From Minisyncoccota bacterium (GTDB lineage: Bacteria; Patescibacteriota; Minisyncoccia; 2-02-FULL-40-12; GWA2-44-9): a stretch of 64,000 nt of DNA. The first letter of the stretch is position 1; each line of letters begins with the position of its first letter. The notes under the pieces are model-generated. The model worked only from the letters and a program-made list of their open reading frames with translations, was not told the origin of the DNA and searched no databases. The position numbers and the translations under genes are program-made. Shown here piece after piece: positions 9,284 through 56,045 of the stretch. Location of the stretch: positions 201,709-265,708 of the forward strand of contig CP129474.1 in NCBI GenBank assembly GCA_030583765.1, written 5' to 3'.

Positions 9284-9991
9284 ATGAACGAATATCAAAA
9301 GAACCATCTTGCCACGATCACTGAAACCACCATCCGTGGCATCGGAGATTCTGACCGACATGCGCTCACACTCTTTGGTATTGCCGCTGGCAGCAAGGGC
9401 AAGCTCTTCTTAGAGCTAGGCGTACGCAATGGTGATAGCACGTTGCCGCTTCTCCTGGCCGCTCATCTGGTTGGCGCCAAACTCATCTCCGTAGACATCC
9501 AGCAGACAACATTCACTCCGCCACCCGACCTTGCTCCACATTGGCAATTTATTCAGAGCGACGCGCTCGCCTATTTGAGTAACGTCCCGAATGATACCGT
9601 TTTTGATATTGTGTTTGTTGATGATTGGCATACATACCCGCATGTCAAAAAAGAACTAGAGCTACTCACGCGCCACGTTACACCACAGAGCATCGTCTGT
9701 CTCCATGATCTGATGTATGGGGGTACAGAGCCTCGCTATCATACAAATCCTGGCATGCATAAGGGTGAGTGGGCATACGGTGGGCCATATAGGGCCGTTG
9801 CGAACCTCAACGACTCGTGGGAGTGGGCAACGCTCCCTTGGCACAGCGGGTTGACCATCTTACGCAAGAAAGATAGCGTCTTTGCAGAAAGCCGCATTAA
9901 AATGTGGGCTAAGCGCACTATACGCCACTTAGTACCAAATCTATGGCAGAGGCTTCTCGCAATATACCGACACTTTAAAACATTATCATGA
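9284..9991 (+). CDS. Class I SAM-dependent methyltransferase (TylF/MycF / cephalosporin-hydroxylase-like O-methyltransferase fold)
   Basis: LELGVRNGDSTLPL (motif I-like) and DIVFVDDWHTYPHVKKELE (acidic motif) are typical of sugar O-methyltransferases. Confidence 0.5.
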   Translation: MNEYQKNHLATITETTIRGIGDSDRHALTLFGIAAGSKGKLFLELGVRNGDSTLPLLLAAHLVGAKLISVDIQQTTFTPPPDLAPHWQFIQSDALAYLSNVPNDTVFDIVFVDDWHTYPHVKKELELLTRHVTPQSIVCLHDLMYGGTEPRYHTNPGMHKGEWAYGGPYRAVANLNDSWEWATLPWHSGLTILRKKDSVFAESRIKMWAKRTIRHLVPNLWQRLLAIYRHFKTLS

Positions 9992-10965
9992 GTCCAAAGA
10001 TTTCATTCATCATGGCGGGGAGAAACGACGACTACGGCGGCAATTTCCTCAACCGCATGCATACATCGTTGCGCACACTACTCTATCTTGCAGAAAAGCA
10101 CGCCGCCCCTATTGAAGTGGTAGTTATAGATTATAATCCACCTATTGAAGTGCCCACACTTCGCGAGGCGCTAGGTCTTTCTGGCAACGCTTGGTGCACG
10201 CTCCGATTTATCTCTATCCCCGCAGAATTTCATGCGCGCGTCAGTAATGGCGGAAAGAACCCATTTCCTGAATACATCGCCAAAAACATCGGCATCCGCC
10301 GAGCGCGAGGCGAATACGTTGCTTCTGTAAATCCAGATATTATTTTTTCGGAAGCGTTCTTTTTGAGCATTGTAAAAGGAGATCTTCACCCCACATCGTT
10401 CTACCGCGCCAATCGCCACGACCTTGGCATTCGTGCCATCGACCCAACCATCTCCGTCCCCGATGTACTCCGCCTGTGCGCACAAAATACCGTGCGTATA
10501 TGGACGAATAACGGCTCACCTTACGTATCATGGAAACGATGGTTTAAGCGATTCCGTAAAAGTCCAAAACCCTATAACCTTTTCTTTGCGCCGATATTTA
10601 ACTTCCTCCATGACTGGAAGGTTGCGAAGAACCCAAATCGCCTCCACGATGCAGCATCTGGCGATTTTATGATGATGCATGCAACAGGATGGGCAACAAC
10701 GCGCGGATTTGATCAAGTCCCATTTCTTTCGTATGTGGACGGATACCATCTCCACCTTGCGCATTGTCTCGGCCTCTCACAGGTTATTCTTAAAGACCCG
10801 ATCTATCACGTTGACCACCGCACCAGTAACGGCACCCGCCCGAGCCTTGATCTACAAACATACCTTGATACCACGCAAAAAATGCTCACGACTGGTATCC
10901 CGTACAAAGAGTACGATGCCAACTGGGGATTCCCTGACACAACATTCAGCGAAACTACTGCGTAG
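9988..10965 (+). CDS. Putative GT-A fold glycosyltransferase (GT2-like)
   Basis: The N-terminus ISFIMAGRNDDYGGNF ... IEVVVIDYNPP resembles the GT2 NDP-sugar binding region. There are no TM segments. Confidence 0.4.
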   Translation: MSPKISFIMAGRNDDYGGNFLNRMHTSLRTLLYLAEKHAAPIEVVVIDYNPPIEVPTLREALGLSGNAWCTLRFISIPAEFHARVSNGGKNPFPEYIAKNIGIRRARGEYVASVNPDIIFSEAFFLSIVKGDLHPTSFYRANRHDLGIRAIDPTISVPDVLRLCAQNTVRIWTNNGSPYVSWKRWFKRFRKSPKPYNLFFAPIFNFLHDWKVAKNPNRLHDAASGDFMMMHATGWATTRGFDQVPFLSYVDGYHLHLAHCLGLSQVILKDPIYHVDHRTSNGTRPSLDLQTYLDTTQKMLTTGIPYKEYDANWGFPDTTFSETTA

Positions 10966-11302
10966 AAGGCCCATCAACTGCAACGCCCCAATATAAAAAA
11001 CGGTGAGGGGCTTCAAGCACATCCTGAAAGTGCCTTGTTTTCGGTGGCACCGCCACCACATCACCGGGTCGCACTTCGTGTATCGCATCTCCCACAACAT
11101 AGCGAGCCACGCCCGCAAGGATATAGTAGACCTCCCACATGGTTTCGTGTGCATGAGCGTACTGTTCCGTTGACCCAACGTTGACGATCTCTCCGTGCGC
11201 AACTTGGGTGAGGTGTGGCACGTCTCCGTTTTTGAGAAAAACCTTCTTCAAGCCCCCATGTGCGGTCTCAATGACCGGTGATGCATCTCCTTTAATAAGC
11301 AT
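10955..11302 (-). CDS. Cupin-domain protein (cupin_2; possible sugar isomerase/epimerase accessory)
   Basis: Two-His cupin motifs HAHETMWEVYYILAGVARY and GDVVAVPPKTRH. I chose the start at MLIKGD (11302) because the longer ORF would overlap the upstream methyltransferase. Confidence 0.55.
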   Translation of the reverse strand: MLIKGDASPVIETAHGGLKKVFLKNGDVPHLTQVAHGEIVNVGSTEQYAHAHETMWEVYYILAGVARYVVGDAIHEVRPGDVVAVPPKTRHFQDVLEAPHRFLYWGVAVDGPSTQ

Positions 11303-12035
11303 GGTCCGTATTTTTAGGCACCACCACCATGAGTCCCGCCGCAAAAAGGGAGGGCCATAGCTTATATAGTACCGGGACTCCGACATAGCCGATAACTTGT
11401 GCGTGCTGATACCCAATCGCATCGAGCCACCATCGCATATCTCTCAGCGTCCAAAAACGAACGTGCTCTGATGGATGCGCGCGCCATTGGAGCGGAAAGC
11501 GTCCCAATAGAAGCCGTAGTCGATGTGCAAAAAATCCTGTGTTGGGGACTGAAAAGACAACTGCTTTGCGGGCGTGCGCCATGCCCCACTCAAGGAGCTT
11601 CTCGGCGTGGGGCATATGCTCTAAAACTTCGAAGAAGGTTACATAGTCGTGCATATCGATCGCAGGTAGCGCATCTGGATCGGCAATATTTCCTTTAATG
11701 ACATCAATTCCATTACGCCGCGCAGCCTCTAGTGCGCTTTCTGCGATATCAACGCCTCGTAGCTCTCCAGTCTTCCCGTGCTCTTTCAAAAAAGCAAGCA
11801 TTGCCCCAGTGCCACATCCAACATCAAGCACCGAGCTTGATTGGCCTATGACACCACATAAAAACAGTGCACGCGCTCTTTGAAATGCGTTCAAGCGCAC
11901 TACGCCACGGGACTGCCAATAAGCTGCATAGTCAACGCTATGCTCGTTGTAGCGTGGATACTTAAATAAGTCACGGATATAGTGTTTTGTTGTGTTAAGA
12001 AAACTCATAGCGTTATACGTAATTGCTTTGCCCAC
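11292..12035 (-). CDS. Class I SAM-dependent methyltransferase
   Basis: Motif I VLDVGCGTGAMLAFL. A Methyltransf_11/23-like core follows (GVDIAESALEAARRNG, FEVLEHM). Confidence 0.75.
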   Translation of the reverse strand: MGKAITYNAMSFLNTTKHYIRDLFKYPRYNEHSVDYAAYWQSRGVVRLNAFQRARALFLCGVIGQSSSVLDVGCGTGAMLAFLKEHGKTGELRGVDIAESALEAARRNGIDVIKGNIADPDALPAIDMHDYVTFFEVLEHMPHAEKLLEWGMAHARKAVVFSVPNTGFFAHRLRLLLGRFPLQWRAHPSEHVRFWTLRDMRWWLDAIGYQHAQVIGYVGVPVLYKLWPSLFAAGLMVVVPKNTDHAY

Positions 12036-13861
12036 ATTTGAAATGTGAAAATAGGGAAGAATGCTTTGATGCTATTTTGAGAATGCGCCGATCCTGATGC
12101 GGTGTATGTTCGCAAAAGCTCGAAGTTAAAGAGCGGGGCTGTTTCATTGTAGAAGTTTGGCTCGAGCACCTCGCGTACCATATCACCAAATTGCGAACGC
12201 ATCCAGAGCGCTACTGGCGCAGTCCAGCCTGATTTATGCTTCTCCGTGACATAGGTAGGGAGCATGTCGTGATACGCCTTACGAATAAGACCCTTGGTCC
12301 CCGGCGCTTGTAATTTCTCCTCGGAAGAGATACGAGACGCGTAGTTAGTGACACGTGCATCAAGAAATGGAAAGCGTGCCTCCATACCAAAATGCATACC
12401 GATTTTATCTGTCATTGTAAGAGAGTCTTCGGGAAGCCAGAAAAGTCGGTCAAAATCTGCAACCGCATTACCAAAATCATATGATGGGCTTTGCACACAT
12501 GGCATGCTGATATGTTCCAGATGGGAGAGCGCACTGCTCACTTTGAATGGAAATGTGAAAAGGTTAGCGTGCCGCTGTGTGAGGAGCCGACTCACATACC
12601 ACCAGCGCGTTAAAGGCTCATTGAGGCGCAATGGCAATCCAAACGGCGCCTTACCCTGATACGCTTCTCGTAGGGAAAGTGCCGCATTAAGCACCCATGT
12701 GGGATAGCGCTGATAGAGCTTCGACAGCGCTGCGGAGCGGTAATACTTGGGGTAGCCCATGTATTGCTCGTCTCCGCCATCGCCCGTCAAAATAACAGTG
12801 CATGTCTTACTCGCCTCTTGCGCGAGAAGATAGTACGCGGGACGAGAAGAGTGGTAGCGAGGCTCTTCGATCACATCGATGGCTTTCAATGTTGCGTCAG
12901 TGAATGCCCTTTCGGTAATTAAAAGCTCGTCATGTTCTGCGCCATACTCTCTGCTTAGTCGCTGAGCGATATCAGCATCTTCATTAAACCGCGGATCGTT
13001 CGTATCAAATCGCGTGGTGAACGTGCGCGGTTTTTGTATGCCATGAGCAACAAGCTCGTGGAGTACGATCGATGAATCAAGACCGCCGCTGAGATACATC
13101 CCGAAAGGACGCAACCCCATCGTGTGATCAATAATCGCCCCTCCTAGTGTTTCACGGAACTGCTCCACGTCAAACGCCGTACGTTCATGATCATTACTGA
13201 GATCTTCTTGCCATCCAGTCTCTAAAAACTTCCGGTCTCGCAGAGAGAACACTTTATATTCTCCCGGCATCACCTTATGAACATCTTTGAGTAATGTCGC
13301 CGATCCGGGGAGATATCCGATGCTAAAAAATGCCGAAAGCACTTCATGCCGTAACGCCCGAGGCATTCCAGGATCTTCTAGCAGTCCTCGCAGCTCTGAA
13401 GCAAACGTAAGCACCCCGTCGCGCTCAACATAATAGAGCGGCTTCATGCCGGCTCGATCACGGGCAATCATGAGCATTTCTGCATCTCTGTCATACCAGG
13501 CAAGCGCAAACATGCCATTGAGGCGATGGAGAAAACGATACCCCTCGCGCCGCAAACCCGCAAAAAGTACTTCTGTATCACCGCGCGTATGGAATACCTC
13601 TCCGAGACGTTCGAGCTCGCGCTTGAGATCAAGATAGTTGTAGATTTCGCCGTTATATACGAGCGCGTAGCGTTTATCATCTGAAATCCATGGCTGAGAA
13701 CCGACGCTAGGAGTTTCTGTGATGGCAAGGAGGTTGTGCCCGAGACTCACTGAACGATCCATAAAAACGTGTGCCCCGTCAGGGCCACGGTGACGCAGCG
13801 CGTGTGTCATGCGATCAATGCGCTCTCTATCGGGAAATGTAAAGCCGCTAATGCCACACAT
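12005..13861 (-). CDS. Asparagine synthase (glutamine-hydrolysing) family amidotransferase (AsnB/WbpS-like)
   Basis: Starts MCGISG (Cys2 nucleophile of Ntn amidotransferases). The central PP-loop motif is YLSGGLDSS. Confidence 0.85.
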   Translation of the reverse strand: MCGISGFTFPDRERIDRMTHALRHRGPDGAHVFMDRSVSLGHNLLAITETPSVGSQPWISDDKRYALVYNGEIYNYLDLKRELERLGEVFHTRGDTEVLFAGLRREGYRFLHRLNGMFALAWYDRDAEMLMIARDRAGMKPLYYVERDGVLTFASELRGLLEDPGMPRALRHEVLSAFFSIGYLPGSATLLKDVHKVMPGEYKVFSLRDRKFLETGWQEDLSNDHERTAFDVEQFRETLGGAIIDHTMGLRPFGMYLSGGLDSSIVLHELVAHGIQKPRTFTTRFDTNDPRFNEDADIAQRLSREYGAEHDELLITERAFTDATLKAIDVIEEPRYHSSRPAYYLLAQEASKTCTVILTGDGGDEQYMGYPKYYRSAALSKLYQRYPTWVLNAALSLREAYQGKAPFGLPLRLNEPLTRWWYVSRLLTQRHANLFTFPFKVSSALSHLEHISMPCVQSPSYDFGNAVADFDRLFWLPEDSLTMTDKIGMHFGMEARFPFLDARVTNYASRISSEEKLQAPGTKGLIRKAYHDMLPTYVTEKHKSGWTAPVALWMRSQFGDMVREVLEPNFYNETAPLFNFELLRTYTASGSAHSQNSIKAFFPIFTFQMWAKQLRITL

Positions 13862-14660
13862 GTCGTATAATTTTATCCAAAAAACTCTCACGATATGCTC
13901 GAATATCAAACAATGGGTCCCTCACTTCTCCTATCACGTTAAAAAGTAGGCGTGGGAATCGCGTTACTGACCGAGGCGAGACGCCATGAATCGCATGAGG
14001 GGTATTGAGAAAAAAGACAAACGTATTATGAGTATATGGGATTGAAGTAATTTTCTCTACGAATCGATTCGCGATTAGACGTGGGCCGTGGAATCGAGGC
14101 TGGCGTTTGGCGCGATATATCTCTAAATCACCTCCCTGTGAGTCGTCGCGAGGGTCGCGCAGATATAAAAGTCCTGCAAAAAGCTCGCGCTCGTTATCAA
14201 TGTGGGAAATTTTTACAGACGAAGCCCGGTCAACAACGGGAGTATTAATGGAAATTTGGGCATCCAGTAAAATATCGCGATCTGTAAACGTATCCTTGTT
14301 GCGCATGCCCACGCGCCATGAGTCAACGCCCCCTATGTGCCCTGAGATGTTTGGATACTGTGCTTGCATATGCTCCTTAAAGCGAGAAAGCACCTCCCCA
14401 AAAAATGATTGGGACACATGATAGCTCACCATGTCACGCCATTCGCGCGAAAGGGATGCATTATCTAATGCCTCTGCTGCCGTATAGCTAAATCTCTGAT
14501 TTGATACATAGGGCTCGCCACCCGTGATAGCACTAAGAGGTGGAAAGGAACGCAAGAGCGCATCACACAAATCCGGGTCCAACGCATTGGGAATAACAAC
14601 ATAAGGGAAGGGGGCCTTATGAATCTGCGCTGACGTAATGCGTCCAAGAAGAGAGTGCAT
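13848..14660 (-). CDS. Hypothetical protein, possible 2OG-Fe(II) oxygenase superfamily
   Basis: An HxD...H arrangement (SHIDNE ... PHAIHGV) and the PFPYVVIPNALDPDLC N-terminus are reminiscent of PhyH/2OG oxygenases. The support is weak. Confidence 0.3.
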   Translation of the reverse strand: MHSLLGRITSAQIHKAPFPYVVIPNALDPDLCDALLRSFPPLSAITGGEPYVSNQRFSYTAAEALDNASLSREWRDMVSYHVSQSFFGEVLSRFKEHMQAQYPNISGHIGGVDSWRVGMRNKDTFTDRDILLDAQISINTPVVDRASSVKISHIDNERELFAGLLYLRDPRDDSQGGDLEIYRAKRQPRFHGPRLIANRFVEKITSIPYTHNTFVFFLNTPHAIHGVSPRSVTRFPRLLFNVIGEVRDPLFDIRAYRESFLDKIIRHVWH

Positions 14661-14664
14661 GTGC

Positions 14665-16128
14665 CTATGTTACTGTTTCTAAAATCTGAGGCAAGGTACT
14701 ATGAAGGTCGTCCACTGAGCGCAGCACGGAGCTGCGGCGCGCCAATACATCCTGAGGTAATTCCGCCAAGGCTCGTACTGTCGGTACAATATCTGACACG
14801 CTCACCAGCTGTGCTAATTCTGCTTCGACCAGATCCTGTGCTTGAGTGCTTTGCATTTGCAGAACGCCAACAGGCTTTTGGGCCTCAACCATTTCATATA
14901 AGAAGGTGGAGTAACTGCCCAATACAACATTAATCGTGGCGAGCGTTGCAGGCGTAAGTTGTTGTACACATGCAAAACGGGGATGCTGTGTTATGGCATC
15001 CGAAAGGCCACGTAACTGATCTTCTGCCGACGCATCAGGCCTCACTTTGAAATAAATGTGCGCCGCTGGGTCTTGGAGTAGCGCCAGTATGTATGAAGAA
15101 ACTTCTTTTCTATCAGCTTGTGGCTCAAACGGGATGAGAATATGCAACTCAGCGCCGTTCGTAGTGCCTGGCATTGGTACATAGTGCGTTTTGTGCGGGC
15201 TCCCTCCAATAAGAATGCGCTCAGCGTGCAATGCGAATAATGGACTCAGGGACATTAGTTGCTCCCGCCAAAACTGATTCCATACTACATAGCGATCCGG
15301 CATTACGCACAGGCGCGCATCAATGCCTACATAGCGCCACCCCACGAGGTGTCGATTAAAACGGCCGTGCTGAAATACTAGAGATGGAATGTGCGCACCG
15401 CGCGCGGCAGCAATAACTTCGTGAAAGTTTCGAATATCATCAATACTTAATACACGAACCGTCCCCACCATACGGAATACACGCTCTAAGAATAGTATGC
15501 GATAAACAGAAAGTTGCGCTTTCTGTTTATACGTCTGAATAAGATATGCAACGAGTGGGGTTTCTGACGCATTGAAACGCTCCGCATCAATAGGAATGTG
15601 AGGGAATTGTACTAGATTTAGAAGTCTAAAACTTTTTAACAAACCGAAGAGTATATCGATTCCTTCGAGATATATCACTGGACGCCGCCGAGAAAAAAAT
15701 CTCCGAATAAGCCCGCCGTTCATGCGGCCATGGATAATTTCGAAAAAAGACTCACGCTGCTTATACAAAACCTCATACACCTTGTGTAAGCGTGGGTCAT
15801 TCTTAAAATCGCCTACAGCAATATCAACCGTATAGAGGGCGTTGCGAGGACGTCTCAGAACAAGCCATGCACATGAGAACAAAGAAATGCATAGGGCAGC
15901 ATATCTCAAAAGCCAATCTTTTAAGCCCATGGACGGTGGCGTGCACTGCTTCTGCGGAGACCACGAACGGATTTCAGACCAAAGATGCTGCTGAAAAAAC
16001 GACCAGAGTGAGTATGTGCGGAATACAAAAACGTCGGTTAACGAGCCGGAGCCGACGCGCATCGTATTAAGCCGCTCAAGTAAATTCAGATGTTCTGCAA
16101 AGGAAAGCATACCGAGTATAGAGAGCAT
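14665..16128 (-). CDS. Hypothetical protein, possible GT-B fold transferase (TagF/KpsS-like)
   Basis: 487 aa with no TM segments. The C-terminal half has a GT-B-like architecture (HILIPFEP..., VLGSYSTFLYEMVEAQKPVGVLQ). The family could not be resolved. Confidence 0.3.
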   Translation of the reverse strand: MLSILGMLSFAEHLNLLERLNTMRVGSGSLTDVFVFRTYSLWSFFQQHLWSEIRSWSPQKQCTPPSMGLKDWLLRYAALCISLFSCAWLVLRRPRNALYTVDIAVGDFKNDPRLHKVYEVLYKQRESFFEIIHGRMNGGLIRRFFSRRRPVIYLEGIDILFGLLKSFRLLNLVQFPHIPIDAERFNASETPLVAYLIQTYKQKAQLSVYRILFLERVFRMVGTVRVLSIDDIRNFHEVIAAARGAHIPSLVFQHGRFNRHLVGWRYVGIDARLCVMPDRYVVWNQFWREQLMSLSPLFALHAERILIGGSPHKTHYVPMPGTTNGAELHILIPFEPQADRKEVSSYILALLQDPAAHIYFKVRPDASAEDQLRGLSDAITQHPRFACVQQLTPATLATINVVLGSYSTFLYEMVEAQKPVGVLQMQSTQAQDLVEAELAQLVSVSDIVPTVRALAELPQDVLARRSSVLRSVDDLHSTLPQILETVT

Positions 16129-16137
16129 AGCATCCTA

Positions 16138-16166
16138 TTGACATCGATACAACTAGACATTCTAAT
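16138..16166 (+). promoter_or_regulatory. Candidate sigma70 promoter for the radical SAM gene, within the divergent intergenic region
   Basis: TTGACA (16138-16143), a 17-nt spacer, then TCTAAT (16161-16166), about 50 nt upstream of the AAAGGAAATG start at 16216. Confidence 0.4.
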
Positions 16167-16215
16167 AACGTTTGCTATAGTGCTAAAAGTTCTTCTCACA
16201 ACGAAACGAAAGGAA

Positions 16216-17187
16216 ATGTACGTGGAAAGGATCACCGATCGGATCGATGCCATAACCAAGATCCCTGAAGCATATCGGACCACGACCCCACCGCCCCCCA
16301 AGAGCGTCAAGATCGAGCTGACGGGGCGATGCAATTACCGGTGCGGTTTTTGCGCTCTTCGCACGCGCGAAGCGCAACCAACGCAAGACATGTCCTGGGA
16401 CTTCTACGCATGCATCGTCAGCGAGATGCGCAATGCTGGCGTTCAGGAGCTTGGCGTTTTCTTCCTGGGGGAACCCTTCATGAATCCCGATCTCCTCGTG
16501 CGCGCCATCAGGTACGCCAAAAAGGAGGTTGGGTTCCCCTACGTCTTTCTCACCACGAACGGTTCGCTTGCGCAACCTGAGTACGTTCAGGCGTGCATCG
16601 AAGCGGGACTCAACTCTCTCAAATGGAGCCTGAACAACGCCGATCCAGAGCAGTTTGCTCGGGTGACCGGTGCACGCCCCTCCCTGTGGAACCGCGCCCT
16701 CCACAACATGGAGCACGCGAAGGCCATTCGTGATCGTATTCACGCCAAAACGGGCCACCGTTGCATCTTGTCGGCATCCAGCATTCAGTACGACGGGGAC
16801 CAGCAAAAAAAGATGCAGGCGCTCGTCGACGACATTCTGCCCTTCATTGACCAGCACTACTGGCTCCCCCTCTACTCGATGGGAAGCCTCGCCGCACAGA
16901 GGGAGAAGGAGCTTGGATATCGCCCGATTGCTGGCAACCAGGGGCGCATCGGCGCACTCCGAGATCCGCTGCCTTGCTGGTCGGCTTTCACCGAAGGACA
17001 CATTACCTCCAGTGGCAATTTGTCGGCATGCTGCTTTGATGCCGATGAACGCTGGGCGATGGCAGACCTCAATACGGTTGGGTTCATGGAGGGTTGGCAC
17101 AGTGCAGCCTTCCAAAAACTCCGCGCCGCACACCTGCAAAAAGACGTGCGCGGCACGGTGTGCCAGTTGTGCGTTGCATACACGTAA
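16216..17187 (+). CDS. Radical SAM enzyme with C-terminal SPASM/twitch-like Cys cluster
   Basis: CxxxCxxC motif in IELTGRCNYRCGFCALR. C-terminal Cys set SACCFD...GTVCQLCVAY. Start chosen at the Met with SD AAAGGAA (the longer ORF would overlap the divergent upstream gene). Confidence 0.8.
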   Translation: MYVERITDRIDAITKIPEAYRTTTPPPPKSVKIELTGRCNYRCGFCALRTREAQPTQDMSWDFYACIVSEMRNAGVQELGVFFLGEPFMNPDLLVRAIRYAKKEVGFPYVFLTTNGSLAQPEYVQACIEAGLNSLKWSLNNADPEQFARVTGARPSLWNRALHNMEHAKAIRDRIHAKTGHRCILSASSIQYDGDQQKKMQALVDDILPFIDQHYWLPLYSMGSLAAQREKELGYRPIAGNQGRIGALRDPLPCWSAFTEGHITSSGNLSACCFDADERWAMADLNTVGFMEGWHSAAFQKLRAAHLQKDVRGTVCQLCVAYT

Positions 17188-17234
17188 AGCACTTCCGTTC
17201 TCGCGTGCCCCCAAGTCTCATTGGGGGCACATTT

Positions 17235-18221
17235 TTATATAAACCCTCGCGACACAATATGATGCATGTGAATAATCCCTACCGGTAGACCGTCTGTGGT
17301 GACGAAGAGGGAGGTAATTTTAAATTTCTCCATATCATAGAGAGCCTCTTTGAGCGTACTTTCCTTACTCGTTGTTTTTGGATTCAAGGTCATGATATCT
17401 TTCGCCTGTAAATCTTTTGAAAACGTTTTTTGAGCAAGGGCGCGGCGCAAATCACCGTCAGTAATAACGCCACGCAGTAGACCATCGCGGGAAATAACAC
17501 CTGTCACGCCAAGCCCCCTTTTCGTGATCTCCTTCACAACCTTTGGAACTGCTTCATCAAGGTACACTAGTGGTAGGCGCGTTTTTCCATGCATGCGAGC
17601 GCTCACACGTGTAAGCTCTAATCCTAATGAGCCGCCAGGATGTGTCCGCGCAAAATCGTTTTTCGTTGTGCACGCATATGTGCTCAGACCAACCGCAAGC
17701 ATGTGACCAATACCGAGCGAAGCAACCGCACTAGCCATCGGAGCTAGGTTGAAAGGAGACCCCTCGGTAGGCGCAGAAAAGCAAAGAGCCACCTGGCTCA
17801 TCTTTACAAGTGGCGACTCTGCGCGCCCAGTGATTGCAATAACCGGCACCTTTATCCGACGCACATACGCCAGCGCATGTATTAATTCCTTTGTTGCTCC
17901 ACTCTGAGAAAGAGCTATCAGAACATCCCCTTTTTGTACCATTCCAAAATCACCATGCATTGCCTCTCCGGGGTGGAGCGGGGTCGCTGGAAATCCCAGA
18001 CTCGTCAAAGATGCAGCAATTTTTTGGCTGATATGCCACGACTTCCCAATGCCGCACACAATAATTTTGCCCCTTCTTTGCCTCAGGAGATCGAGGGCGC
18101 GCGAAAGAAGGCGTGGCGAAATGAGGGAAAGGCTTGCGATTGCTTCTTGCTCAGAAGCAATGAGGTACCTTACAGCTCGCATGATCTCATGTATTCCTTT
18201 CATATATAACGAGAAATGCAC
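17235..18221 (-). CDS. kpsF: Arabinose-5-phosphate isomerase KpsF/GutQ family (SIS domain + tandem CBS)
   Basis: SIS motif KIIVCGIGKSWHISQKIAASL...ALSQSGATKEL. Two C-terminal CBS domains (VYLDEAVPKVVKEI..., IMTLNPKTTSKESTLKEALYDM). Confidence 0.85.
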   Translation of the reverse strand: MHFSLYMKGIHEIMRAVRYLIASEQEAIASLSLISPRLLSRALDLLRQRRGKIIVCGIGKSWHISQKIAASLTSLGFPATPLHPGEAMHGDFGMVQKGDVLIALSQSGATKELIHALAYVRRIKVPVIAITGRAESPLVKMSQVALCFSAPTEGSPFNLAPMASAVASLGIGHMLAVGLSTYACTTKNDFARTHPGGSLGLELTRVSARMHGKTRLPLVYLDEAVPKVVKEITKRGLGVTGVISRDGLLRGVITDGDLRRALAQKTFSKDLQAKDIMTLNPKTTSKESTLKEALYDMEKFKITSLFVTTDGLPVGIIHMHHIVSRGFI

Positions 18222-19051
18222 TCCCAGAGGTCTTGCCGCACATGGCCTCGTTCTATTTCATGCTGGATCTCTGTTCTCGAAATAGTATTGGCTTGCAACG
18301 CCCGCGCAACAAGCTTGAAAAAGTATGCCTCAATCTCCGGGTCAGGATGGCGTTGATATGTCATATGGTATTTCCCTAATACACGCAACAGCGGCTCACG
18401 AGGAATGATTCCAAAAATCTTCGGCAATGGACGCCGTTTAAAATCTACAGGTAAGCCAGTTTTCCATGGTTGCGTAATACGATTCGTCGTGTGGAGCATG
18501 CGAGCACCTGGTGATAACACATCAAGGCTATTCCAATCTCGGGAGAGCTCCAAAACAGACCCCTCGCGCGCCAACGTCATAATTTCATCATAATCACGCT
18601 CGTGACTATAGAGATCATGGAGGAGATCTTTTATGCGCCAGTGCGACAATTGAGCACAGTCGAGCAGCATAACACTAGAATCCCAAGCGCCCTTCTTAGC
18701 ACATGCTGCAATTGCTCGCCCCTGCATATCTAAAGAAAAAAGTTCTCCAATATCGCTCAGGGCAAATATGTCAGGGTCAATCACAATCGCCCGCCCCTGA
18801 AATCCCATGAGCTCTGGAGGCATAAATCGGCTTAACGTAAACGACTGTAAGTCCGCCTCCGATGCGTCAATCAATTGCCCCCACCGCTTAAATGTCTTCC
18901 CGTGTACATGGGCAAAAGGTGATAAAGAGTCAACGTTTAATATTTCAATATGAAATGCACGCGCATCCTTTGCGGTCATTGTTAATGCGAATGCCGCGAG
19001 ACGCGCTCCAAACAGTTGTTTATTATTTGCCTGAATAAAAACTGTGTTCAT
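18200..19051 (-). CDS. Hypothetical protein, possible GT-A-like nucleotide-sugar transferase
   Basis: A DPD (DxD-like) motif in AIVIDPDIFAL. No TM segments and no confident family. Confidence 0.3.
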   Translation of the reverse strand: MNTVFIQANNKQLFGARLAAFALTMTAKDARAFHIEILNVDSLSPFAHVHGKTFKRWGQLIDASEADLQSFTLSRFMPPELMGFQGRAIVIDPDIFALSDIGELFSLDMQGRAIAACAKKGAWDSSVMLLDCAQLSHWRIKDLLHDLYSHERDYDEIMTLAREGSVLELSRDWNSLDVLSPGARMLHTTNRITQPWKTGLPVDFKRRPLPKIFGIIPREPLLRVLGKYHMTYQRHPDPEIEAYFFKLVARALQANTISRTEIQHEIERGHVRQDLWECISRYI

Positions 19052-21237
19052 GAAAGAATGCTCCTATAGAGGCCGCCGTATGCCGCCCGCGACCGTGCAG
19101 AATCGTGCGCGCGAGCATGCTGAACGCTAGCCACACCCATACTACGACGCCTCGCCTCATCCACCAAGAGTAACTGCATGGCATCGGCTAGCGCCTCAAT
19201 ATCGTTCTGAGGCACGAGAATCGCATTTTCTTCAGAGACCGCATCTTCCGCCCCAGTGCCTTGTGTTGCGATAATAGGCAATCCAGATGCGGCAGCTTCT
19301 ACACACACAATACCAAAGCCCTCAACATGGGCCCCACTATTCACTGAAGGGAATACAAATAGCGCCGCTCCTTTATACAGTTTTTTTAAGCGCTCAGAAG
19401 AAGCTAGGTTCTCAAAGAAGACGTGTGCATCTAATCCAAGTTCACGCACCAATGCTCGCACACGATGCATATATGCTACGTCTCTCTGATCGCCAACAAT
19501 AATATAGCGCGCATCCGGAGCAGCGGATCTCGCTTGAGCAAACGCGGGGATACTTATGTGATATCCCTTTCGCTCTTTGAGAGCACCGACACTTAATATG
19601 TACAGTGGATGCTCTTCTTCGTGGCGTTGCGTAAACTCTTCTATATGAACTGCTGGATGAATAACATCGATGACTCCGGAAGAATAGATGCCTCGGATAC
19701 GTCGCTGCATGAATGAGCTAATCGCGATTCGCGCGCGCGCACCCTTAAGCGCAAGACGTGCAATATACATTATTGGCCAATGCTGTAACGGACCGAGAGA
19801 ATACGTCCCTACAAGAGTTATGACATATTTTCGCCGCACCATACGTGCAAGCACCCATGCCACAATGCCTAAGGGGTTTATATCAATCGCATGTATAGAA
19901 ATACTTGCTCGAACTAGGGGCAGCGCCCTCCACATCCCCCAGAGCATCTCCTGACGTCGCCCAAAGAGTGGTAGCGCACCACCCTCTTGAAAGCCGGCCA
20001 TAGTGACAACCCCGACTCTATATTGAGCATCGCGAAGCCCTTGCACAATGTCGGCAGAAAGTCTCCCCCAACCTGATACCAATCGCGCATCCGGAGTCAG
20101 AAATGTGATGATGTGCTGTGAGTAAAAAAGGGCAATATTCTTCGCCCGTTGATCCCACGTCATTTTTTGCACTTCTGTATATGCTCGCTCAATCATTTCA
20201 GAAGCGCCTTCGCCAACTAACGCGCGCTGTAGGCAACGCATTAATGAGTTTGGATCATCGGGGACAAACCATAACGCGCTCTCGTCGCTCAAAACTTCGC
20301 GAAGCGCGGGCACATCTGACGCTACAATGACACGCCGAGAAGCCATATATTCGAAAACTTTCAGTGGTGAGGTAAGCGTCCTCGAGCTTTCATAGCGACC
20401 CGAATTGGGAATCACGAGCACGTCCGCCGCGCATAAGAACATGGGCATCTCGTGGTGTGGCCGATGACCTATTATGTGAATGTTGGGAAAGTTCTGATAC
20501 CGCTCCTGAGCACGCTGCACGTCTTGAGGCATGCCCCCTACAAAGACAAAGTGTGTGTGGGGCATCTGTGTCGCCGTCTCAAGAAGTGTGTCAGCTCCTT
20601 TGTGCGGAAAGAGTTGGCCAGTGTACATGATAAGACGTCCATCAATCGGGAGATCGAGCATAGATCGAGCATCGTGGCGAGATAGAGATGTCTGAAAAAG
20701 AGATACATCAACGCCGTCAGGCGCCGAAAGTATGAGAGCATCAAAAAAGCCATGATCCACAAAGGCTTTACGAATTGACTCATTAATAACTACAAGGCGA
20801 ACACCAGAACGACGAAGGTACCAATAGATAAAAGAGCGACGCTTTGAAAATGTGTGCGCTTCAAACACGATCCGCCGAGGAGAAATGATGGCAACACACA
20901 GTGCAACGAGCTCGTCGCGCGTATATACCAAATCAGCATCAGATCTCCACGCGTGCCACGCAAGAATGAGTCCTGAAAAAACCTGCTTACCCCAAAAGAG
21001 TAGTTTTTCTGGAAAAAATGGGTGTACCCATTCGGGTGCCCATACTCGCCTCACCGAAAAGACACGAGGCACATTATAGTAGGCGAAAATGTCCTCTCCA
21101 ACCCTTGGGTGCCGCGTTGGGATGAGCAGTTCAGTGGAGATGCCGCTCTGCCCAAACGCTTTACACATATGGGCAATCTGTACGCCGTACGCCTTTTCAG
21201 TGGGGAGACGCTGACTACTGATGTAGAGAAGCTTCAT
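19048..21237 (-). CDS. Tandem two-module GT4 glycosyltransferase (fused double GT-B)
   Basis: 729 aa with two GT4-like halves, each carrying an EGFGIV/E-x7-E-like C-terminal motif (first half ...FPSVNSGAHVEGFGIVCVEAAASGLPIIAT). Confidence 0.7.
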   Translation of the reverse strand: MKLLYISSQRLPTEKAYGVQIAHMCKAFGQSGISTELLIPTRHPRVGEDIFAYYNVPRVFSVRRVWAPEWVHPFFPEKLLFWGKQVFSGLILAWHAWRSDADLVYTRDELVALCVAIISPRRIVFEAHTFSKRRSFIYWYLRRSGVRLVVINESIRKAFVDHGFFDALILSAPDGVDVSLFQTSLSRHDARSMLDLPIDGRLIMYTGQLFPHKGADTLLETATQMPHTHFVFVGGMPQDVQRAQERYQNFPNIHIIGHRPHHEMPMFLCAADVLVIPNSGRYESSRTLTSPLKVFEYMASRRVIVASDVPALREVLSDESALWFVPDDPNSLMRCLQRALVGEGASEMIERAYTEVQKMTWDQRAKNIALFYSQHIITFLTPDARLVSGWGRLSADIVQGLRDAQYRVGVVTMAGFQEGGALPLFGRRQEMLWGMWRALPLVRASISIHAIDINPLGIVAWVLARMVRRKYVITLVGTYSLGPLQHWPIMYIARLALKGARARIAISSFMQRRIRGIYSSGVIDVIHPAVHIEEFTQRHEEEHPLYILSVGALKERKGYHISIPAFAQARSAAPDARYIIVGDQRDVAYMHRVRALVRELGLDAHVFFENLASSERLKKLYKGAALFVFPSVNSGAHVEGFGIVCVEAAASGLPIIATQGTGAEDAVSEENAILVPQNDIEALADAMQLLLVDEARRRSMGVASVQHARAHDSARSRAAYGGLYRSILS

Positions 21238-21302: not shown

Positions 21303-22148
21303 ATGATGGTGCCAGATTTCTCCTTTATGATCACATTCCGCTCTCTTGGGCAACTAGGGCGATTCGGCAACCAGCTTTTTCAATATGCAGGGACGCGCCT
21401 CTATGCAGAAACCCACGGCTTCGCGCATGCATTCCCCACGTGGATAGGCGCTCAAGTATTCAATAATATTGCCACCTACACTCTCACAGAACAGCTTCTC
21501 GCAAGCATCCTGCCGACAATCCAACTCGATGATATCCAGTCGTATGGCGTCAAACAAAAGATTGCTTTCGCTCTTGGCCTCTCACCCTCACTGCCATACA
21601 CCGTCTCCCTATCAAGTCTCTACGCTCATCCGCGTGATCACAAAAATCTTTTTGGATATCTCCAAGATCACAAAAGTCTCTCCCTCTTAGCGCAGCACAA
21701 AGAAAAGGTGCGCACGTGGTTCTCGTTTCATGACAAGATAAGCTCCGCGTACACGAAAGCAACGCGCAATCTAAGCCCATGGATCGGCGTCCATGTGCGC
21801 AGAGGAGATCTCGTAAAGCGCGGCGTTACTGTGCCGCTGCACTCATTCTTAGAAAAGCTCGATAGCGTGCGAAACGGTCGGCCGGTTTTCGTTGCATCCG
21901 ACGACCCTAATATGCATTCCGAATTTGCACACTGTGATCCGATCCGCATACGCAACCCATTACCTGAAGTACCGCGAGAAATTTTCGATTTTTGGATGCT
22001 CACGCAGAGCCGTGCGATCATTGGTTGTGGATCAACATTCTCATGGTGGGCAGCATATATAAGTGGAACGCAAGAATACTACGCCCCGCTTCTTACGCAT
22101 CTCTGGCCCGCTGGATACATCCCCGTGCTTGAGCAACAATCAATATGA
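21303..22148 (+). CDS. GT11-family alpha-1,2-fucosyltransferase-like glycosyltransferase
   Basis: GT11 signature motifs GRFGNQLFQYA (motif I), HVRRGDLV and STFSWWAAY. Confidence 0.75.
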   Translation: MMVPDFSFMITFRSLGQLGRFGNQLFQYAGTRLYAETHGFAHAFPTWIGAQVFNNIATYTLTEQLLASILPTIQLDDIQSYGVKQKIAFALGLSPSLPYTVSLSSLYAHPRDHKNLFGYLQDHKSLSLLAQHKEKVRTWFSFHDKISSAYTKATRNLSPWIGVHVRRGDLVKRGVTVPLHSFLEKLDSVRNGRPVFVASDDPNMHSEFAHCDPIRIRNPLPEVPREIFDFWMLTQSRAIIGCGSTFSWWAAYISGTQEYYAPLLTHLWPAGYIPVLEQQSI

Positions 22149-23917
22149 TACGCCGCCTATTTAAACGCCTCTATCGAGCAGTATTCAAAAATCGATTCAT
22201 CACTCCACTGATAGAAGTGAGGCCGTTCAACGTATTCAATTATATCGCCTACGCTCTTGATTATGCGGTATACCGTCGCATGCTTGGAGCTCAACGCGAC
22301 AGCGTTTCACTGTGGCCACAACTTGGAGAAAAAACACCGCGCACATCAATTGATCCACACTATTTTCATCAGGGAGTATGGACTGCTCAAAAAATTGCAC
22401 ACGCGAAGCCGGGGCGACACGTAGATGTCGGGTCGCAGGCGGATCTGATCGGCTTTCTCACCACGCTTACGCATGTCACCTTCGTTGACCTTCGCCCATT
22501 GCCAGTGCGTATTGCTAATCTGGAAAATATAAAGGGAGATATTCTCCATCTTCCATTCTCGAATAATTCGGTTGACTCTCTTTCATGCCTCCATGTAGCT
22601 GAGCACGTGGGGCTTGGACGATATGGCGATCGCCTTGATCCCGATGGGACTATAAAAGCCTGCGCTGAGCTTTCTCGAGTACTTGCGCCAAATGGCAACC
22701 TCTATTTTTCGATACCGATCGGTTCACCGCGAACATTTTTTAATGCTCACCGCATACATGCACCCGAAACAATCCGGAGATATTTTAGTGAACTATCTCT
22801 GGTTGAATTTTCAGCAATCGATGATCGTGGCAACGTCATACGCAACGCAAACATGGAACAACTGCGCCACGCTAAATATGCCTGCGGACTCTTCCATTTT
22901 ACAAAGAAAGATCCGGCCCAAGTGCAAAATATCCTTATTATCAAAATGGGCGCTGCAGGAGATGTCGTCCGCACTACAGCACTACTGCCCGGCTTACAAG
23001 AGAAATATCGGGGAGCAACGATCGATTGGCTTACCCAGCCACGTATGGAACCCCTCCTGCGCGACAACCCGCACATCGATCGCATTCTTATAGCGCCGAC
23101 CGATGCGTGGCGCGAACGTGAATACCAACTGGTTATTAATCTCGATGAAGAAGAGGAGGCATGCCGCATTGCGTCGGCAGCAAGAACGCAACGTATTTTT
23201 GGCGCGTATATAGATGGTGACAAAATATCATACACTAATGATGCCGCGCCGTGGTTCGATATGGGCCTGATATCGAGATATGGAAAAACAAGGGCGGATG
23301 AATTGAAAAAACTAAACCGGAAAACATACCAGGAGCTTTGTTATGAAATGCTCGATATCCCCTATAGAAAGCAAGAGCCGCATTTCCCTCTCTCGGGCGT
23401 CGACACAGCATTTGCACAGCAATTTGCAGAAAGATACGGCATAAAAAAGAATACGCGCGTCATTGGCATAAATCCTGGCTCTAGTAAGCGATGGGTCGAC
23501 AAGCGCCTTCAGGTGCACGAGGCGCGGGCCCTTATAGCTGGACTCCGCGGGAAATATCCAGATGCGAAAATCATACTTTTTGGAGGACCAGAAGAGCGTG
23601 AATACATTAGCGCAATCATTGAAGCGACGCGAGATCTCAGTATTATCGACGCGGGAATTGAAAACTCCCTTGGGCAATTTGCGGGCCTTATTAATCTTTG
23701 CTCCGACGTCATCACTAGTGATAGCATGGCCCTCCACATTTCCACTGCGCTAAAGAAAAAAGTGGTCGCCTTCTTTGGCCCGACGTCACCATGGGAAATA
23801 GAGCTCTATAATCTCGGAACAAAAATACTCCCCGTACGTGGATGTCTAAGTTGCTATAATAAAAACTGTAACACACCTCCCGAATACGACATTGACGCTC
23901 TTATAAAAGAAGCCTAG
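22145..23917 (+). CDS. Bifunctional fusion: N-terminal SAM-dependent methyltransferase domain + C-terminal GT9 heptosyltransferase-like domain
   Basis: N-terminus HVDVGSQADLIGFL...DSLSCLHVAEHVG (Methyltransf_11/DUF268-like). C-terminus ILIIKMGAAGDVVRTTALLPGL...IDWLTQP (GT9 ADP-heptose transferase hallmark). Confidence 0.65.
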   Translation: MIRRLFKRLYRAVFKNRFITPLIEVRPFNVFNYIAYALDYAVYRRMLGAQRDSVSLWPQLGEKTPRTSIDPHYFHQGVWTAQKIAHAKPGRHVDVGSQADLIGFLTTLTHVTFVDLRPLPVRIANLENIKGDILHLPFSNNSVDSLSCLHVAEHVGLGRYGDRLDPDGTIKACAELSRVLAPNGNLYFSIPIGSPRTFFNAHRIHAPETIRRYFSELSLVEFSAIDDRGNVIRNANMEQLRHAKYACGLFHFTKKDPAQVQNILIIKMGAAGDVVRTTALLPGLQEKYRGATIDWLTQPRMEPLLRDNPHIDRILIAPTDAWREREYQLVINLDEEEEACRIASAARTQRIFGAYIDGDKISYTNDAAPWFDMGLISRYGKTRADELKKLNRKTYQELCYEMLDIPYRKQEPHFPLSGVDTAFAQQFAERYGIKKNTRVIGINPGSSKRWVDKRLQVHEARALIAGLRGKYPDAKIILFGGPEEREYISAIIEATRDLSIIDAGIENSLGQFAGLINLCSDVITSDSMALHISTALKKKVVAFFGPTSPWEIELYNLGTKILPVRGCLSCYNKNCNTPPEYDIDALIKEA

Positions 23918-39216: not shown

Positions 39217-39219
39217 AGG

Positions 39220-39786: not shown

Positions 39787-39795
39787 AGCAAGCTC

Positions 39796-41580: not shown

Positions 41581-41601
41581 GCAACAAGCGTCAGCGCAAT
41601 C

Positions 41602-54359: not shown

Positions 54360-54369
54360 AGGAGAACCC

Positions 54370-55965: not shown

Positions 55966-56045
55966 GGACGGGCGCGCTCACCACTCCCCACGTTGTCATA
56001 AACAGCGTGGGGAGATTTTTTATGCAATGTGCTACACTAGCGCGC

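Follow-up and report, generated by a model that had tools for sequence, protein, structure and literature searches.

A KpsF-type isomerase, a candidate ulosonic-acid transferase family and a GT8-linked radical SAM enzyme in a surface-glycan locus of a Minisyncoccota bacterium

This study concerns a 64,000-nt stretch of the genome of a Minisyncoccota bacterium (GenBank assembly GCA_030583765.1, contig CP129474.1, positions 201,709 to 265,708 of the forward strand), hereafter the window, and in particular three neighbouring open reading frames (ORFs) that encode a KpsF-type isomerase, a radical S-adenosylmethionine (SAM) enzyme and a 487-aa protein belonging to no named family, designated GTB487. 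These three ORFs, in which a first-pass annotation had seen a possible branch for an ulosonic acid or for a radical-modified sugar, are real and lie where that annotation had placed them. They are embedded in a Wzx/Wzy-type glycan locus spanning positions 96 to ~36000 of the window, which also encodes an initiating sugar-phosphate transferase (Bac_transf), a Wzy_C-TPR protein, a flippase, an ABC transporter, more than 10 glycosyltransferases (GTs) of family GT4, members of GT2 and GT11, a methyltransferase-GT9 fusion and several epimerases/reductases of the short-chain dehydrogenase/reductase type. [quoted passage not shown] The genes concerned are the following:

18200..19051, minus strand: divergent GT8 glycosyltransferase, 283 aa (PF01501, 26.6 bits for a cut-off of 24.3)
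17235..18221, minus strand: KpsF/GutQ-family isomerase, 328 aa, with SIS and CBS domains (TIGR00393)
16216..17187, plus strand: radical SAM enzyme, 323 aa, with a twitch-like auxiliary domain (PF04055 and PF13186)
16129..16215, no strand: divergent intergenic gap of 87 bp between the radical SAM and GTB487 genes, delimited by the gene starts
14665..16128, minus strand: GTB487, 487-aa GT-B protein of an unnamed family, predicted to be membrane-anchored (AlphaFold2 fold, predicted transmembrane helix)
13848..14660, minus strand: 2-oxoglutarate (2OG)-Fe(II) oxygenase-like protein, 270 aa (PF13640, 28.5 bits)
12005..13909, minus strand: AsnB-type glutamine amidotransferase (Asn_synthase, 207 bits; GATase_7, 128 bits)
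11292..12035, minus strand: MetW-like SAM-dependent methyltransferase (Methyltransf_23, 70 bits)

The radical SAM gene is divergent from the GTB487 gene and convergent with the KpsF gene, from which it is separated by 47 bp, and, lying on the plus strand in this arrangement, it is therefore not co-transcribed with either of them. The start of the KpsF gene is overlapped by the GT8 gene, and GTB487 is followed on the same strand by the 2OG oxygenase gene, directly downstream, and then by the amidotransferase and methyltransferase genes. None of kdsA, kdsB, kdsC, waaA, kpsC and kpsS is found in the 64-kb window, the best tblastn match for the kds genes having an E-value of only 0.2.

The isomerase reaches 228.2 bits against the NCBIfam model TIGR00393 (KpsF/GutQ), above the cut-off of 203.7. 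It scores 235.5 bits, for a cut-off of 505, against NF008141, the equivalog model of KdsD, which is the housekeeping arabinose-5-phosphate isomerase of lipopolysaccharide (LPS) synthesis, and it is also far under the cut-off of the GutQ equivalog. Judged by these models, it is a member of the KpsF/GutQ family and not a KdsD orthologue. Its Pfam domains are SIS (85 bits, residues 46-177) and CBS (50 bits, residues 273-324), and residues 186-323 match the CBS-pair structures 3k2v and 3fna. When it is aligned to the SIS-domain structure of E. coli KdsD (2xhz), the residues numbered K59, H88, E111 and E152 in KdsD are all kept, and H193 is kept within an HPGG motif; these five make up the catalytic set of the E. 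coli enzyme. The protein is 36% identical to KpsF of E. coli CFT073 and 46-47% identical to the KpsF proteins of two related loci, L019 and L022, where kpsF lies in an operon with KdsA and KdsB genes. With the family cut-off passed and the catalytic residues kept, the KpsF assignment of the first-pass annotation is upheld, and the protein is accepted as a probable arabinose-5-phosphate isomerase.

The sequence of GTB487 matches nothing in Pfam, in NCBIfam or, by phmmer, in the PDB. A first word-indexed search found six homologues, and an exhaustive profile search 1397 cluster representatives at E≤1e-3, among which 318 at E≤1e-30 are nearly all full length, at ~485 aa; a scan of viral contigs for the family found no members. 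The AlphaFold2 model, computed from an alignment of seven sequences, has a mean predicted local distance difference test score (pLDDT) of 81.6 and a predicted template modelling (TM) score of 0.79. Compared with the PDB by Foldseek, this model matches GT1 enzymes (CalG/OleD), GT4 enzymes and UDP-GlcNAc 2-epimerases with a probability of 1.0, with query-normalised TM-scores of at most 0.48, target-normalised TM-scores of up to 0.60 and identities of 10-14%. As modelled, GTB487 is thus a GT-B fold protein, and the GT-B-like character that had been ascribed to it holds at the fold level. It had also been described as soluble, which must be corrected, as there is a hydrophobic helix at residues 73-91, with a Kyte-Doolittle mean of 1.92, by which the protein is predicted to be anchored in the membrane.

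GTB487 had further been likened to KpsS, KpsC or TagF, and this likeness is not borne out. Neither KpsC, WbbB, WaaA nor TagF appears in the Foldseek top 50, and a profile of 37 family sequences has no match in the PDB at E≤10. Pfam searches with the same 37 members give only weak matches to the GT4 N-terminal domain, in 6/37, and no match to PF05159 or PF04464 in any of them. When the family profile was compared by hhalign with E. coli proteins from annotated genomes, the probabilities were 0.2% for WaaA, 7.9% for KpsC, 3.7% for KpsS and 2.4% for a TagF-like K2 polymerase; as none of these is significant, membership of the WaaA (GT30), KpsC/KpsS (GT107) and TagF families was rejected. A GT99- or GT140-type retaining beta-Kdo transferase was likewise rejected, there being no PDB profile match and no such enzyme in the Foldseek top 50. 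The hhalign comparison contains two weak local pairings: an invariant FK-x-RPD of the GTB487 family is aligned with KVHPD of KpsC, and GTYSTFLYD with SQYGFE of KpsC and with DYSS of TagF-type proteins. These motif echoes may be a lead, and nothing more. Residues D102, D111, R113, D230, Q253-H254-G255, W287 and E335 are invariant in the 37 sequences, as are K361, R363, Q371, G404, L410 and Y411.

The genes found around GTB487 homologues were therefore compared, by tblastn and by clustering of blastp matches, in 21 distinct loci, namely the window, L005, L010 and sixteen genome loci (the first 19), to which L203 and L205 were added. At least one gene of the Kdo pathway (KpsF, KdsA, KdsB or KdsC) lies within 10 kb of the GT-B gene in 13/21 loci. 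KpsF is present in 8/19 of the first loci and in L205, that is in 9/21, and a KdsB-like gene in 6/21. In the loci that have a cytidylyltransferase gene, the GT-B gene is the sole one that always adjoins it. Five loci (L019, L022 and L024-26) carry a cytidylyltransferase together with a gene of the 3-deoxy-D-arabino-heptulosonate 7-phosphate (DAHP) synthase family, as checked against NCBIfam. The most compact arrangement is that of L022, a tight same-strand operon of GT8, KdsB, histidine phosphatase, KpsF, KdsA and GT-B genes with overlaps or gaps of at most 9 nt, where KdsB scores 282 bits (cut-off 234), KpsF 276 bits and KdsA 374 bits (cut-off 242); L019 has the same gene set. The order is KdsB-like, GT-B and MetW-like methyltransferase in L203, and GT8, KpsF, GT-B and methyltransferase in L205, L015 and L018.

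In L024, L025 and L026, a DAHP-synthase-type gene, a KdsB-like gene and a gene for a KdsC-like phosphatase precede a distant GT-B homologue. The synthase resembles type-Iβ DAHP synthases (NF006421, 423 bits for a cut-off of 335) and is not a KdsA equivalog, the KdsB-like protein scores 242 bits for a cut-off of 193 and the phosphatase 95 for 107. Instead of Kdo, this set could yield a 7-carbon 3-deoxy-heptulosonate activated with CMP. The synthase-KdsB-KdsC stretches, all without KpsF, lie at L024:452-2074, L025:820-2454 and L026:4975-7263, in loci labelled as candidate phyla radiation (CPR).

Other companions of the GT-B gene are also recurrent. The MetW-like methyltransferase gene is the most constant (14/19 of the first loci, as well as L203 and L205) and is often translationally coupled to the GT-B gene. 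Orthologues of the divergent GT8, with 46-60% identity, are found in 12/19 of the first loci and in L205, and the AsnB-type amidotransferase recurs with the GT-B gene in L005, L010, L013, L017, L021, L203 and L205. An orthologue of the 2OG oxygenase (48% identity) occupies the equivalent position in L010, and a second 2OG subfamily adjoins GT-B homologues in L017, L020, L021 and L024-26. The association of GT-B and Kdo genes spans Saccharibacteria, Paceibacteria, Parcubacteria and metagenome-assembled genomes (MAGs) labelled Gammaproteobacteria; KdsB-like genes annotated as CMP-Kdo synthetase are, besides, common in Paceibacterota, Parcubacteria and Zambryskibacteria. It is because this neighbourhood is consistent across lineages that we read the GTB487 family, from gene and sequence comparisons, as a candidate new family of CMP-Kdo or CMP-ulosonate transferases. 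The ulosonic-acid branch of the first-pass annotation thus gains from the comparative context, and from nothing within the window itself.

Several points weigh against this assignment. Among the CPR loci, those with KpsF have neither KdsA nor KdsB within 10 kb, those with KdsB have no KpsF within 10 kb, and kdsA, kdsB and kdsC are all missing from the window. No known Kdo transferase is significantly similar to GTB487 in sequence or by profile, and the one link of GTB487 to Kdo is its gene neighbourhood. Heptose genes (GT9, heptose-7-phosphate kinase, HAD) share the GT-B loci, so that another donor is possible; their presence also suggests an LPS-inner-core-like glycan of Kdo and heptose. Finally, the taxon labels of the MAGs are uncertain, L025 being labelled Paceibacter and L026 Gammaproteobacteria with near-identical genes (91% for the KdsA-like and 96% for the KdsB protein).

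L010 is syntenic with the window (GT4-GT4-[x]-GT8-GT-B-2OG-AsnB-methyltransferase), with the radical SAM gene absent. The slot between its GT4 genes and GT8 is filled by a gene with a D-glycero-beta-D-manno-heptose-7-phosphate kinase domain (L010:8109-9044; TIGR02198, 338.5 bits for a cut-off of 345), and in the window the KpsF and radical SAM genes stand one place beyond this slot. It appears that the GT8/GT-B module exchanges its accessory genes for sugar precursors.

The radical SAM gene starts at the ATG at 16216 (323 aa), where the homologue alignments begin, as does the NCBI protein P0007, to which the enzyme is 100% identical and which, coming from a MAG of Candidatus Paceibacterota, places the host among the CPR/Patescibacteria; a 365-aa ORF from 16090 was rejected as too long, since the homologues start at 16216. 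The enzyme matches PF04055 with 60.9 bits (threshold 29.5) and, with 34 bits and above the cut-off, the SPASM model PF13186. In the 19-21 homologues aligned, its CX3CX2C motif (C39/C43/C46) is invariant, and only five further Cys are invariant in the C-terminal part (C254, C272, C273, C316 and C319). The twitch domain has been defined by others, the auxiliary cluster of BtrN having four Cys ligands (PMC9012708). Five invariant Cys are enough to ligate one auxiliary cluster fully, but too few for two, so the auxiliary domain is twitch-like and not a full, 7-Cys SPASM domain. The CxxxCxxC motif given in the first-pass annotation therefore stands, and the SPASM-like Cys cluster has to be scaled down to a twitch-like one.

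Beyond the SPASM match in Pfam, the protein attains the cut-off of none of the NCBIfam models: partial matches, at best, extend over the N-terminal core only, of MoaA, viperin, PqqE and a tungsten-cofactor maturase, and no model of the anaerobic sulfatase-maturating enzyme (anSME) is among the best 25 of the 45 matches. Sequence matches in the PDB (viperin, MoaA, BtrN) are also limited to the core. The AlphaFold2 model (pLDDT 78.7) finds, by Foldseek, SuiB as its best match, then viperin, MoaA, BlsE, BtrN, DesII, anSME, SkfB and EpeE, with query-normalised TM-scores of at most 0.59 and identities of at most 20%, that is, no close structural relative. In Pfam the protein consists of Radical_SAM and SPASM only, with the core beginning at residue 30 of 323 and no cobalamin-binding domain, and a B12-dependent radical SAM methyltransferase was rejected because such an N-terminal domain is missing. 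An anSME was rejected as well, as there is no sulfatase among the window ORFs scanned, in agreement with the first-pass annotation, and as the query-normalised TM-scores to anSME are 0.44-0.49. The family has more than 4500 database matches, which among those listed are 62-74% identical and come from Rhodocyclales, Hydrogenophilales, Elusimicrobia and CPR; with phages and Proteobacteria as a whole included, the range is 60-74%. Our search of the literature turned up no description of such a family.

The GC content of the radical SAM gene is 58.1%, as against 46.7-50.4% for its neighbours. This compositional anomaly, together with the opposite strand, argues for a horizontal insertion. The gene is present in only 4/21 GT-B loci (the window, L005, which carries the same module in a rearranged order, L014 and L027). 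Most of its cellular homologues are found alone among genes of anaerobic respiration, without a glycan context, which also weighs against a role in glycan synthesis: those of Betaproteobacteria stand near Usp, NMO, cbb3-oxidase, FNR/Crp and HemN genes, and in 63 cellular metagenome loci no neighbour family occurs in more than 7, NarI/NarJ, CcoN, cytochrome c peroxidase, ferritin-like proteins and hemerythrin being only loosely enriched. The nearest relatives of the window enzyme, however, have a glycan or mobile setting. One such locus with the radical SAM gene, L008, is a glycan locus of Elusimicrobia. In L115, the radical SAM gene is followed by a GT8 53% identical to that of the window, and transaldolase, PfkB, nucleotidyltransferase, HAD and GT9 genes are also present. 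In L003/L004, a GT8-like gene lies 15 nt downstream of the radical SAM gene, and transposase and PemK toxin genes come next. The contigs L117 and L119 are of phage origin, the latter pairing the radical SAM gene with a GT8-like gene.

This pairing is most marked in viruses. A scan of IMG/VR found 171 viral stretches encoding relatives of the radical SAM enzyme; GenBank phages have no close homologue. A GT8-like gene is found no more than 1.2 kb away in 42 of the 65 viral loci with sufficient sequence on either side, typically 1-27 nt downstream of the radical SAM gene or directly upstream, compared with only 5/42 cellular metagenome loci. The phage GT8-like protein is 26% identical to the window GT8 (E=1e-7), which here lies one gene away from the radical SAM gene. 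Other recurrent genes of the viral loci encode a TPR protein (23 loci), a protein of unknown function of ~252 aa (16), a methyltransferase (15), a GDP-mannose 4,6-dehydratase (14), a DegT aminotransferase (14) and a GT29/MptE-like protein (12), and these cassettes adjoin genes for terminase (T4-type), P22-type portal and SU10-type capsid proteins. They may serve virion glycosylation or modification of the host surface. The coupling in viral loci indicates that a GT8-like transferase, rather than KpsF, is the conserved partner of the radical SAM enzyme. This enzyme and KpsF, which had been read as one possible shared branch, were accordingly rejected as a functional pair, given their low co-occurrence, their opposite strands and the deviating GC content of the radical SAM gene.

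The cassette is carried by uncultivated podophage-like contigs (L121-L200), for example at L199:150-4564 and L141:5251-10448. The phage contig L117/L118 encodes a second, unrelated radical SAM/SPASM protein of 344 aa (L117:9143-10177 and L118:9069-10103), 24% identical to the first, and also a UDP-galactopyranose mutase and a heptose-nucleotide set (GmhA-type SIS_2, PfkB, CTP_transf_like and epimerase).

Some observations were made on the remainder of the window and on its counterparts. At 1055-3328 (minus strand), a Wzy_C domain (O-antigen ligase/polymerase-like) is fused to C-terminal TPR repeats, and such Wzy_C-TPR genes are also found near the GT-B/GT8/methyltransferase module at L014:13485-15665, L015:7426-9464, L018:13469-15634, L020:5023-7257, L021:14882-17056 and L027:13666-15849; in CPR loci they usually have a flippase and then SecA alongside. 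A conserved 325-aa protein without Pfam or NCBIfam family, encoded at 9988-10965 (plus strand) and at L010:18254-19240 (48% identity), adjoins a small cupin and a methyltransferase in both. A tandem double GT4 fusion lies at 19048-21237 (minus strand), and a DUF268/Methyltransf_11 domain is fused to a GT9 (heptosyltransferase-family) domain at 22145-23917 (plus strand); L010 has the methyltransferase and GT9 parts, and both GT4 units, as separate genes. A 1219-aa ORF at 44746-48405 (minus strand) has no Pfam family, and upstream of it TPR, PMT_2-like and glucose/sorbosone-dehydrogenase-like genes lie in succession (37459-44639). The GC content peaks at 0.614, compared with ~0.52 for the window, at 54001-56000, where long ORFs overlap on both strands, one of them of 531 aa (54370-55965) and without Pfam match. 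An rRNA gene as the source of this peak was rejected, since it matches neither rRNA nor any other Rfam family; the window as a whole has no Rfam match and no tRNA gene.

Taken together, these results lead us to propose, with an even chance of being right, that the locus combines an ulosonic-acid module with an inserted twitch-type radical SAM enzyme linked to GT8. The module would comprise the GT8, KpsF, GTB487, 2OG oxygenase, amidotransferase and methyltransferase genes. KpsF would convert ribulose-5-phosphate into arabinose-5-phosphate, the Kdo precursor, which putative KdsA, KdsC and KdsB enzymes encoded elsewhere would turn into CMP-Kdo, and the membrane-anchored GTB487 would then add the ulosonic acid, from its CMP-activated form, to the lipid-linked glycan as it grows. 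If other CMP-dependent GT-B enzymes are a guide, K361-x-R363-P-D365 and G404-x-Y-S-T in the C-terminal Rossmann domain may hold the phosphate and ribose of CMP, and the cleft residues H254 and D230/D231 could be catalytic. GT8 would add a hexose, and the 2OG oxygenase, the amidotransferase and the methyltransferase would tailor the product, the amidotransferase possibly by amidating the sugar carboxylate. As for the radical SAM enzyme, its likeliest role is to tailor a sugar or nucleotide-sugar for GT8: it would abstract a hydrogen atom from this substrate, with its single auxiliary cluster as electron acceptor, and the outcome could be a BtrN-like oxidation, an epimerisation or a dehydration. 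The product might be the donor used by GT8 or an altered residue that GT8 installs.

Other explanations have to be weighed. KpsF could feed a sugar other than Kdo, such as D-arabinose or heptose, acting on arabinose-5-phosphate or in a drifted, GmhA-like role on sedoheptulose-7-phosphate, and in that case GTB487 would be a transferase for this sugar, or else for a sugar- or polyol-phosphate. The lack of kdsA, kdsB and kdsC in the window is in keeping with this, as are the heptose-pathway genes of the loci, including the GT9 fusion at 22145-23917, the heptose-7-phosphate kinase that in L010 (338.5 for 345) replaces the KpsF and radical SAM genes, and the PfkB, HAD and GT9 genes of L005 and L115. 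The minimal CPR modules L015, L018 and L205, which lack a nucleotidyltransferase, and the weak likeness of the GxYST motif to the DYSS of TagF-type proteins are in keeping with it as well. This explanation is nevertheless unlikely in our view: KpsF keeps the five catalytic residues and scores above the family cut-off, it is close to the KpsF of bona fide KdsA/KdsB operons, a true GmhA is a short SIS_2 protein, as in L117, and the GT-B gene is directly beside a KdsB-like gene in six loci, some of them without KpsF and heptose genes. Of similarly low probability is the view of the radical SAM gene as a mobile passenger uninvolved in this glycan, inserted by chance and encoding a stand-alone enzyme of anaerobic or microaerobic metabolism. 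Its strand and its GC content (58% against 47-50%) would fit, and so would its absence from the syntenic L010 and from 17/21 GT-B loci and the cellular homologues without conserved operon partner, near NarI/NarJ, CcoN, cytochrome c peroxidase, Usp, FNR/Crp and HemN genes. Against this view stand the recurrence of the gene in glycan loci of unrelated lineages (L005, L014 and L027 of CPR, L008 of Elusimicrobia, and L115), the GT8-like coupling in 42/65 viral loci and the GT8 one gene away in the window.

Two further functions can be considered for the radical SAM enzyme. KdoO hydroxylates Kdo, and the enzyme could be the oxygen-independent counterpart of the 2OG-Fe(II) oxygenase, performing the same tailoring of the ulosonic acid under anoxic instead of oxic conditions. 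The two genes are indeed near-exclusive in the GT-B loci, only the radical SAM gene being found in L005, L014 and L027 and only 2OG genes in L010, L017, L020, L021 and L024-26, and the proteobacterial radical SAM homologues lie in FNR/HemN/cbb3/nar neighbourhoods. We consider this improbable: the window carries both genes, few loci are concerned, no alternation of this kind is seen in the phage cassettes, neither solved KdoO nor any other PDB entry is detectably similar to the 2OG protein, and hydroxylation by a radical SAM enzyme is chemically unusual. A SPASM maturase modifying a peptide or protein, either of the anSME type or acting on ribosomally synthesised and post-translationally modified peptides, is very improbable, even though the Pfam SPASM model matches, SuiB is the best Foldseek match and anSME, SkfB and EpeE are listed too. 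Neither of the gaps of 87 and 47 nt flanking the gene contains a small ORF, the 87-nt gap having no free-standing one of at least 20 aa, so there is no precursor peptide beside it; there is no conserved small-ORF neighbour in the 63 metagenome or in 80 viral loci, no sulfatase among the window ORFs scanned, only five invariant C-terminal Cys against the seven of SPASM, and the NCBIfam maturase models all score far under their cut-offs.

Beyond the ulosonic-acid module and its GT8-linked radical SAM enzyme, a broader proposal can be put forward, tentatively and as rather doubtful in its full extent. GTB487 would found a new family transferring CMP-3-deoxy-ulosonic acids, either Kdo or an analogue of 7 carbons, the product of a DAHP-synthase-type enzyme, and building LPS-inner-core-like Kdo/heptose glycans on CPR bacteria without outer membrane, and the radical SAM/GT8-like pair would be a hitherto unrecognised unit for radical-based sugar tailoring, which uncultivated podophages would chiefly disseminate and which cellular glycan loci, the present one among them, would capture now and then. 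In textbooks, Kdo is the hallmark of the LPS and capsules of Gram-negative bacteria. Families of Kdo transferases continue to be defined, the latest being GT140, in 2026 (PMC12887879). If the proposal holds, they would be joined by another one with several hundred sequence clusters, a centre in CPR/Patescibacteria and a link to dedicated KpsF/KdsA/KdsB/KdsC genes, and ultra-small episymbionts would be found to decorate their surface with inner-core-type acidic sugars. This would give a handle on the surface chemistry of CPR, which presumably mediates host attachment, and a fold-divergent enzyme for the comparison of mechanisms. The radical SAM family, for its part, is abundant and highly conserved, with no member characterised, and its coupling with GT8-like genes in phage glycan cassettes makes its chemistry directly testable.

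At the system level, the nearest analogue is the kpsF-kpsU(kdsB)-kpsC-kpsS set of E. coli group 2 capsules, for CMP-Kdo supply and beta-Kdo transfer. Like this system, in its CFT073 layout, the window has a dedicated KpsF-type isomerase beside a GT-B-like transferase in a surface-glycan locus, and a KdsB paralogue is present in the related loci L019, L022 and L203. Unlike it, the window has neither KpsU/KdsB, KpsC, KpsS nor ABC-type KpsMT export genes, GTB487 is not a GT107 member (hhalign 7.9% for KpsC and 3.7% for KpsS), assembly looks Wzx/Wzy-dependent, and LPS and an outer membrane are not expected in the organism. As for the transferase, the known Kdo-transferase families are GT30 (WaaA), GT99 (WbbB), GT107 (KpsC/KpsS) and GT140 (KrkA), and the definition of GT140 in 2026 shows that Kdo transferases can share a fold despite negligible sequence similarity (PMC12887879). 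On this precedent, a further divergent family is plausible. GTB487 resembles the known Kdo transferases in its modelled two-Rossmann GT-B architecture and in the association of its family with CMP-Kdo synthesis genes, and, in the weak KpsC alignment, its C-terminal K-x-R-P-D may sit where retaining beta-Kdo transferases have HP(D). It differs from them in having Arg for His in this HP-like motif (RPD instead of HPD), in its unique N-terminal region of ~95 residues with a predicted transmembrane helix, and in the lack of any significant sequence, profile or top-50 fold match. With TagF-type CDP-glycerol/ribitol phosphotransferases it has in common a GT-B-like fold and the motif G-x-Y-S-T-F-L-Y-[DE], which echoes [TS]-D-Y-S-S-x-x-F-D; unlike for TagF, the hhalign probability is 2.4%, none of the 37 members matches PF04464 and there are no CDP-polyol synthesis genes nearby.

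The radical SAM enzyme, finally, can be compared with viperin, MoaA, BlsE and DesII, which act on nucleotides or nucleotide-sugars and to which its model is related by query-normalised TM-scores of up to 0.59. Viperin and MoaA are its best sequence matches in the PDB, over the SAM-binding core only. Unlike a member of any of these groups, it is at most 20% identical to them and reaches no NCBIfam cut-off, and no substrate-binding motif was established that it would have in common with them. The spacing of its Cys, C-x17/18-C(C)-x42/43-C-x2-C, resembles that of BtrN (C169/C188/C232/C235). It differs from BtrN in its identity of 14% and query-normalised TM-score of 0.50, with a phmmer match to the N-terminal core only, and in belonging to a far more conserved family paired with a GT8-like gene. 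Like BtrN, a twitch radical SAM dehydrogenase acting on an aminocyclitol, it would nevertheless combine a radical SAM core with a short one-cluster C-terminal domain (PMC9012708), and it likewise stands in a small-molecule, carbohydrate-type context.

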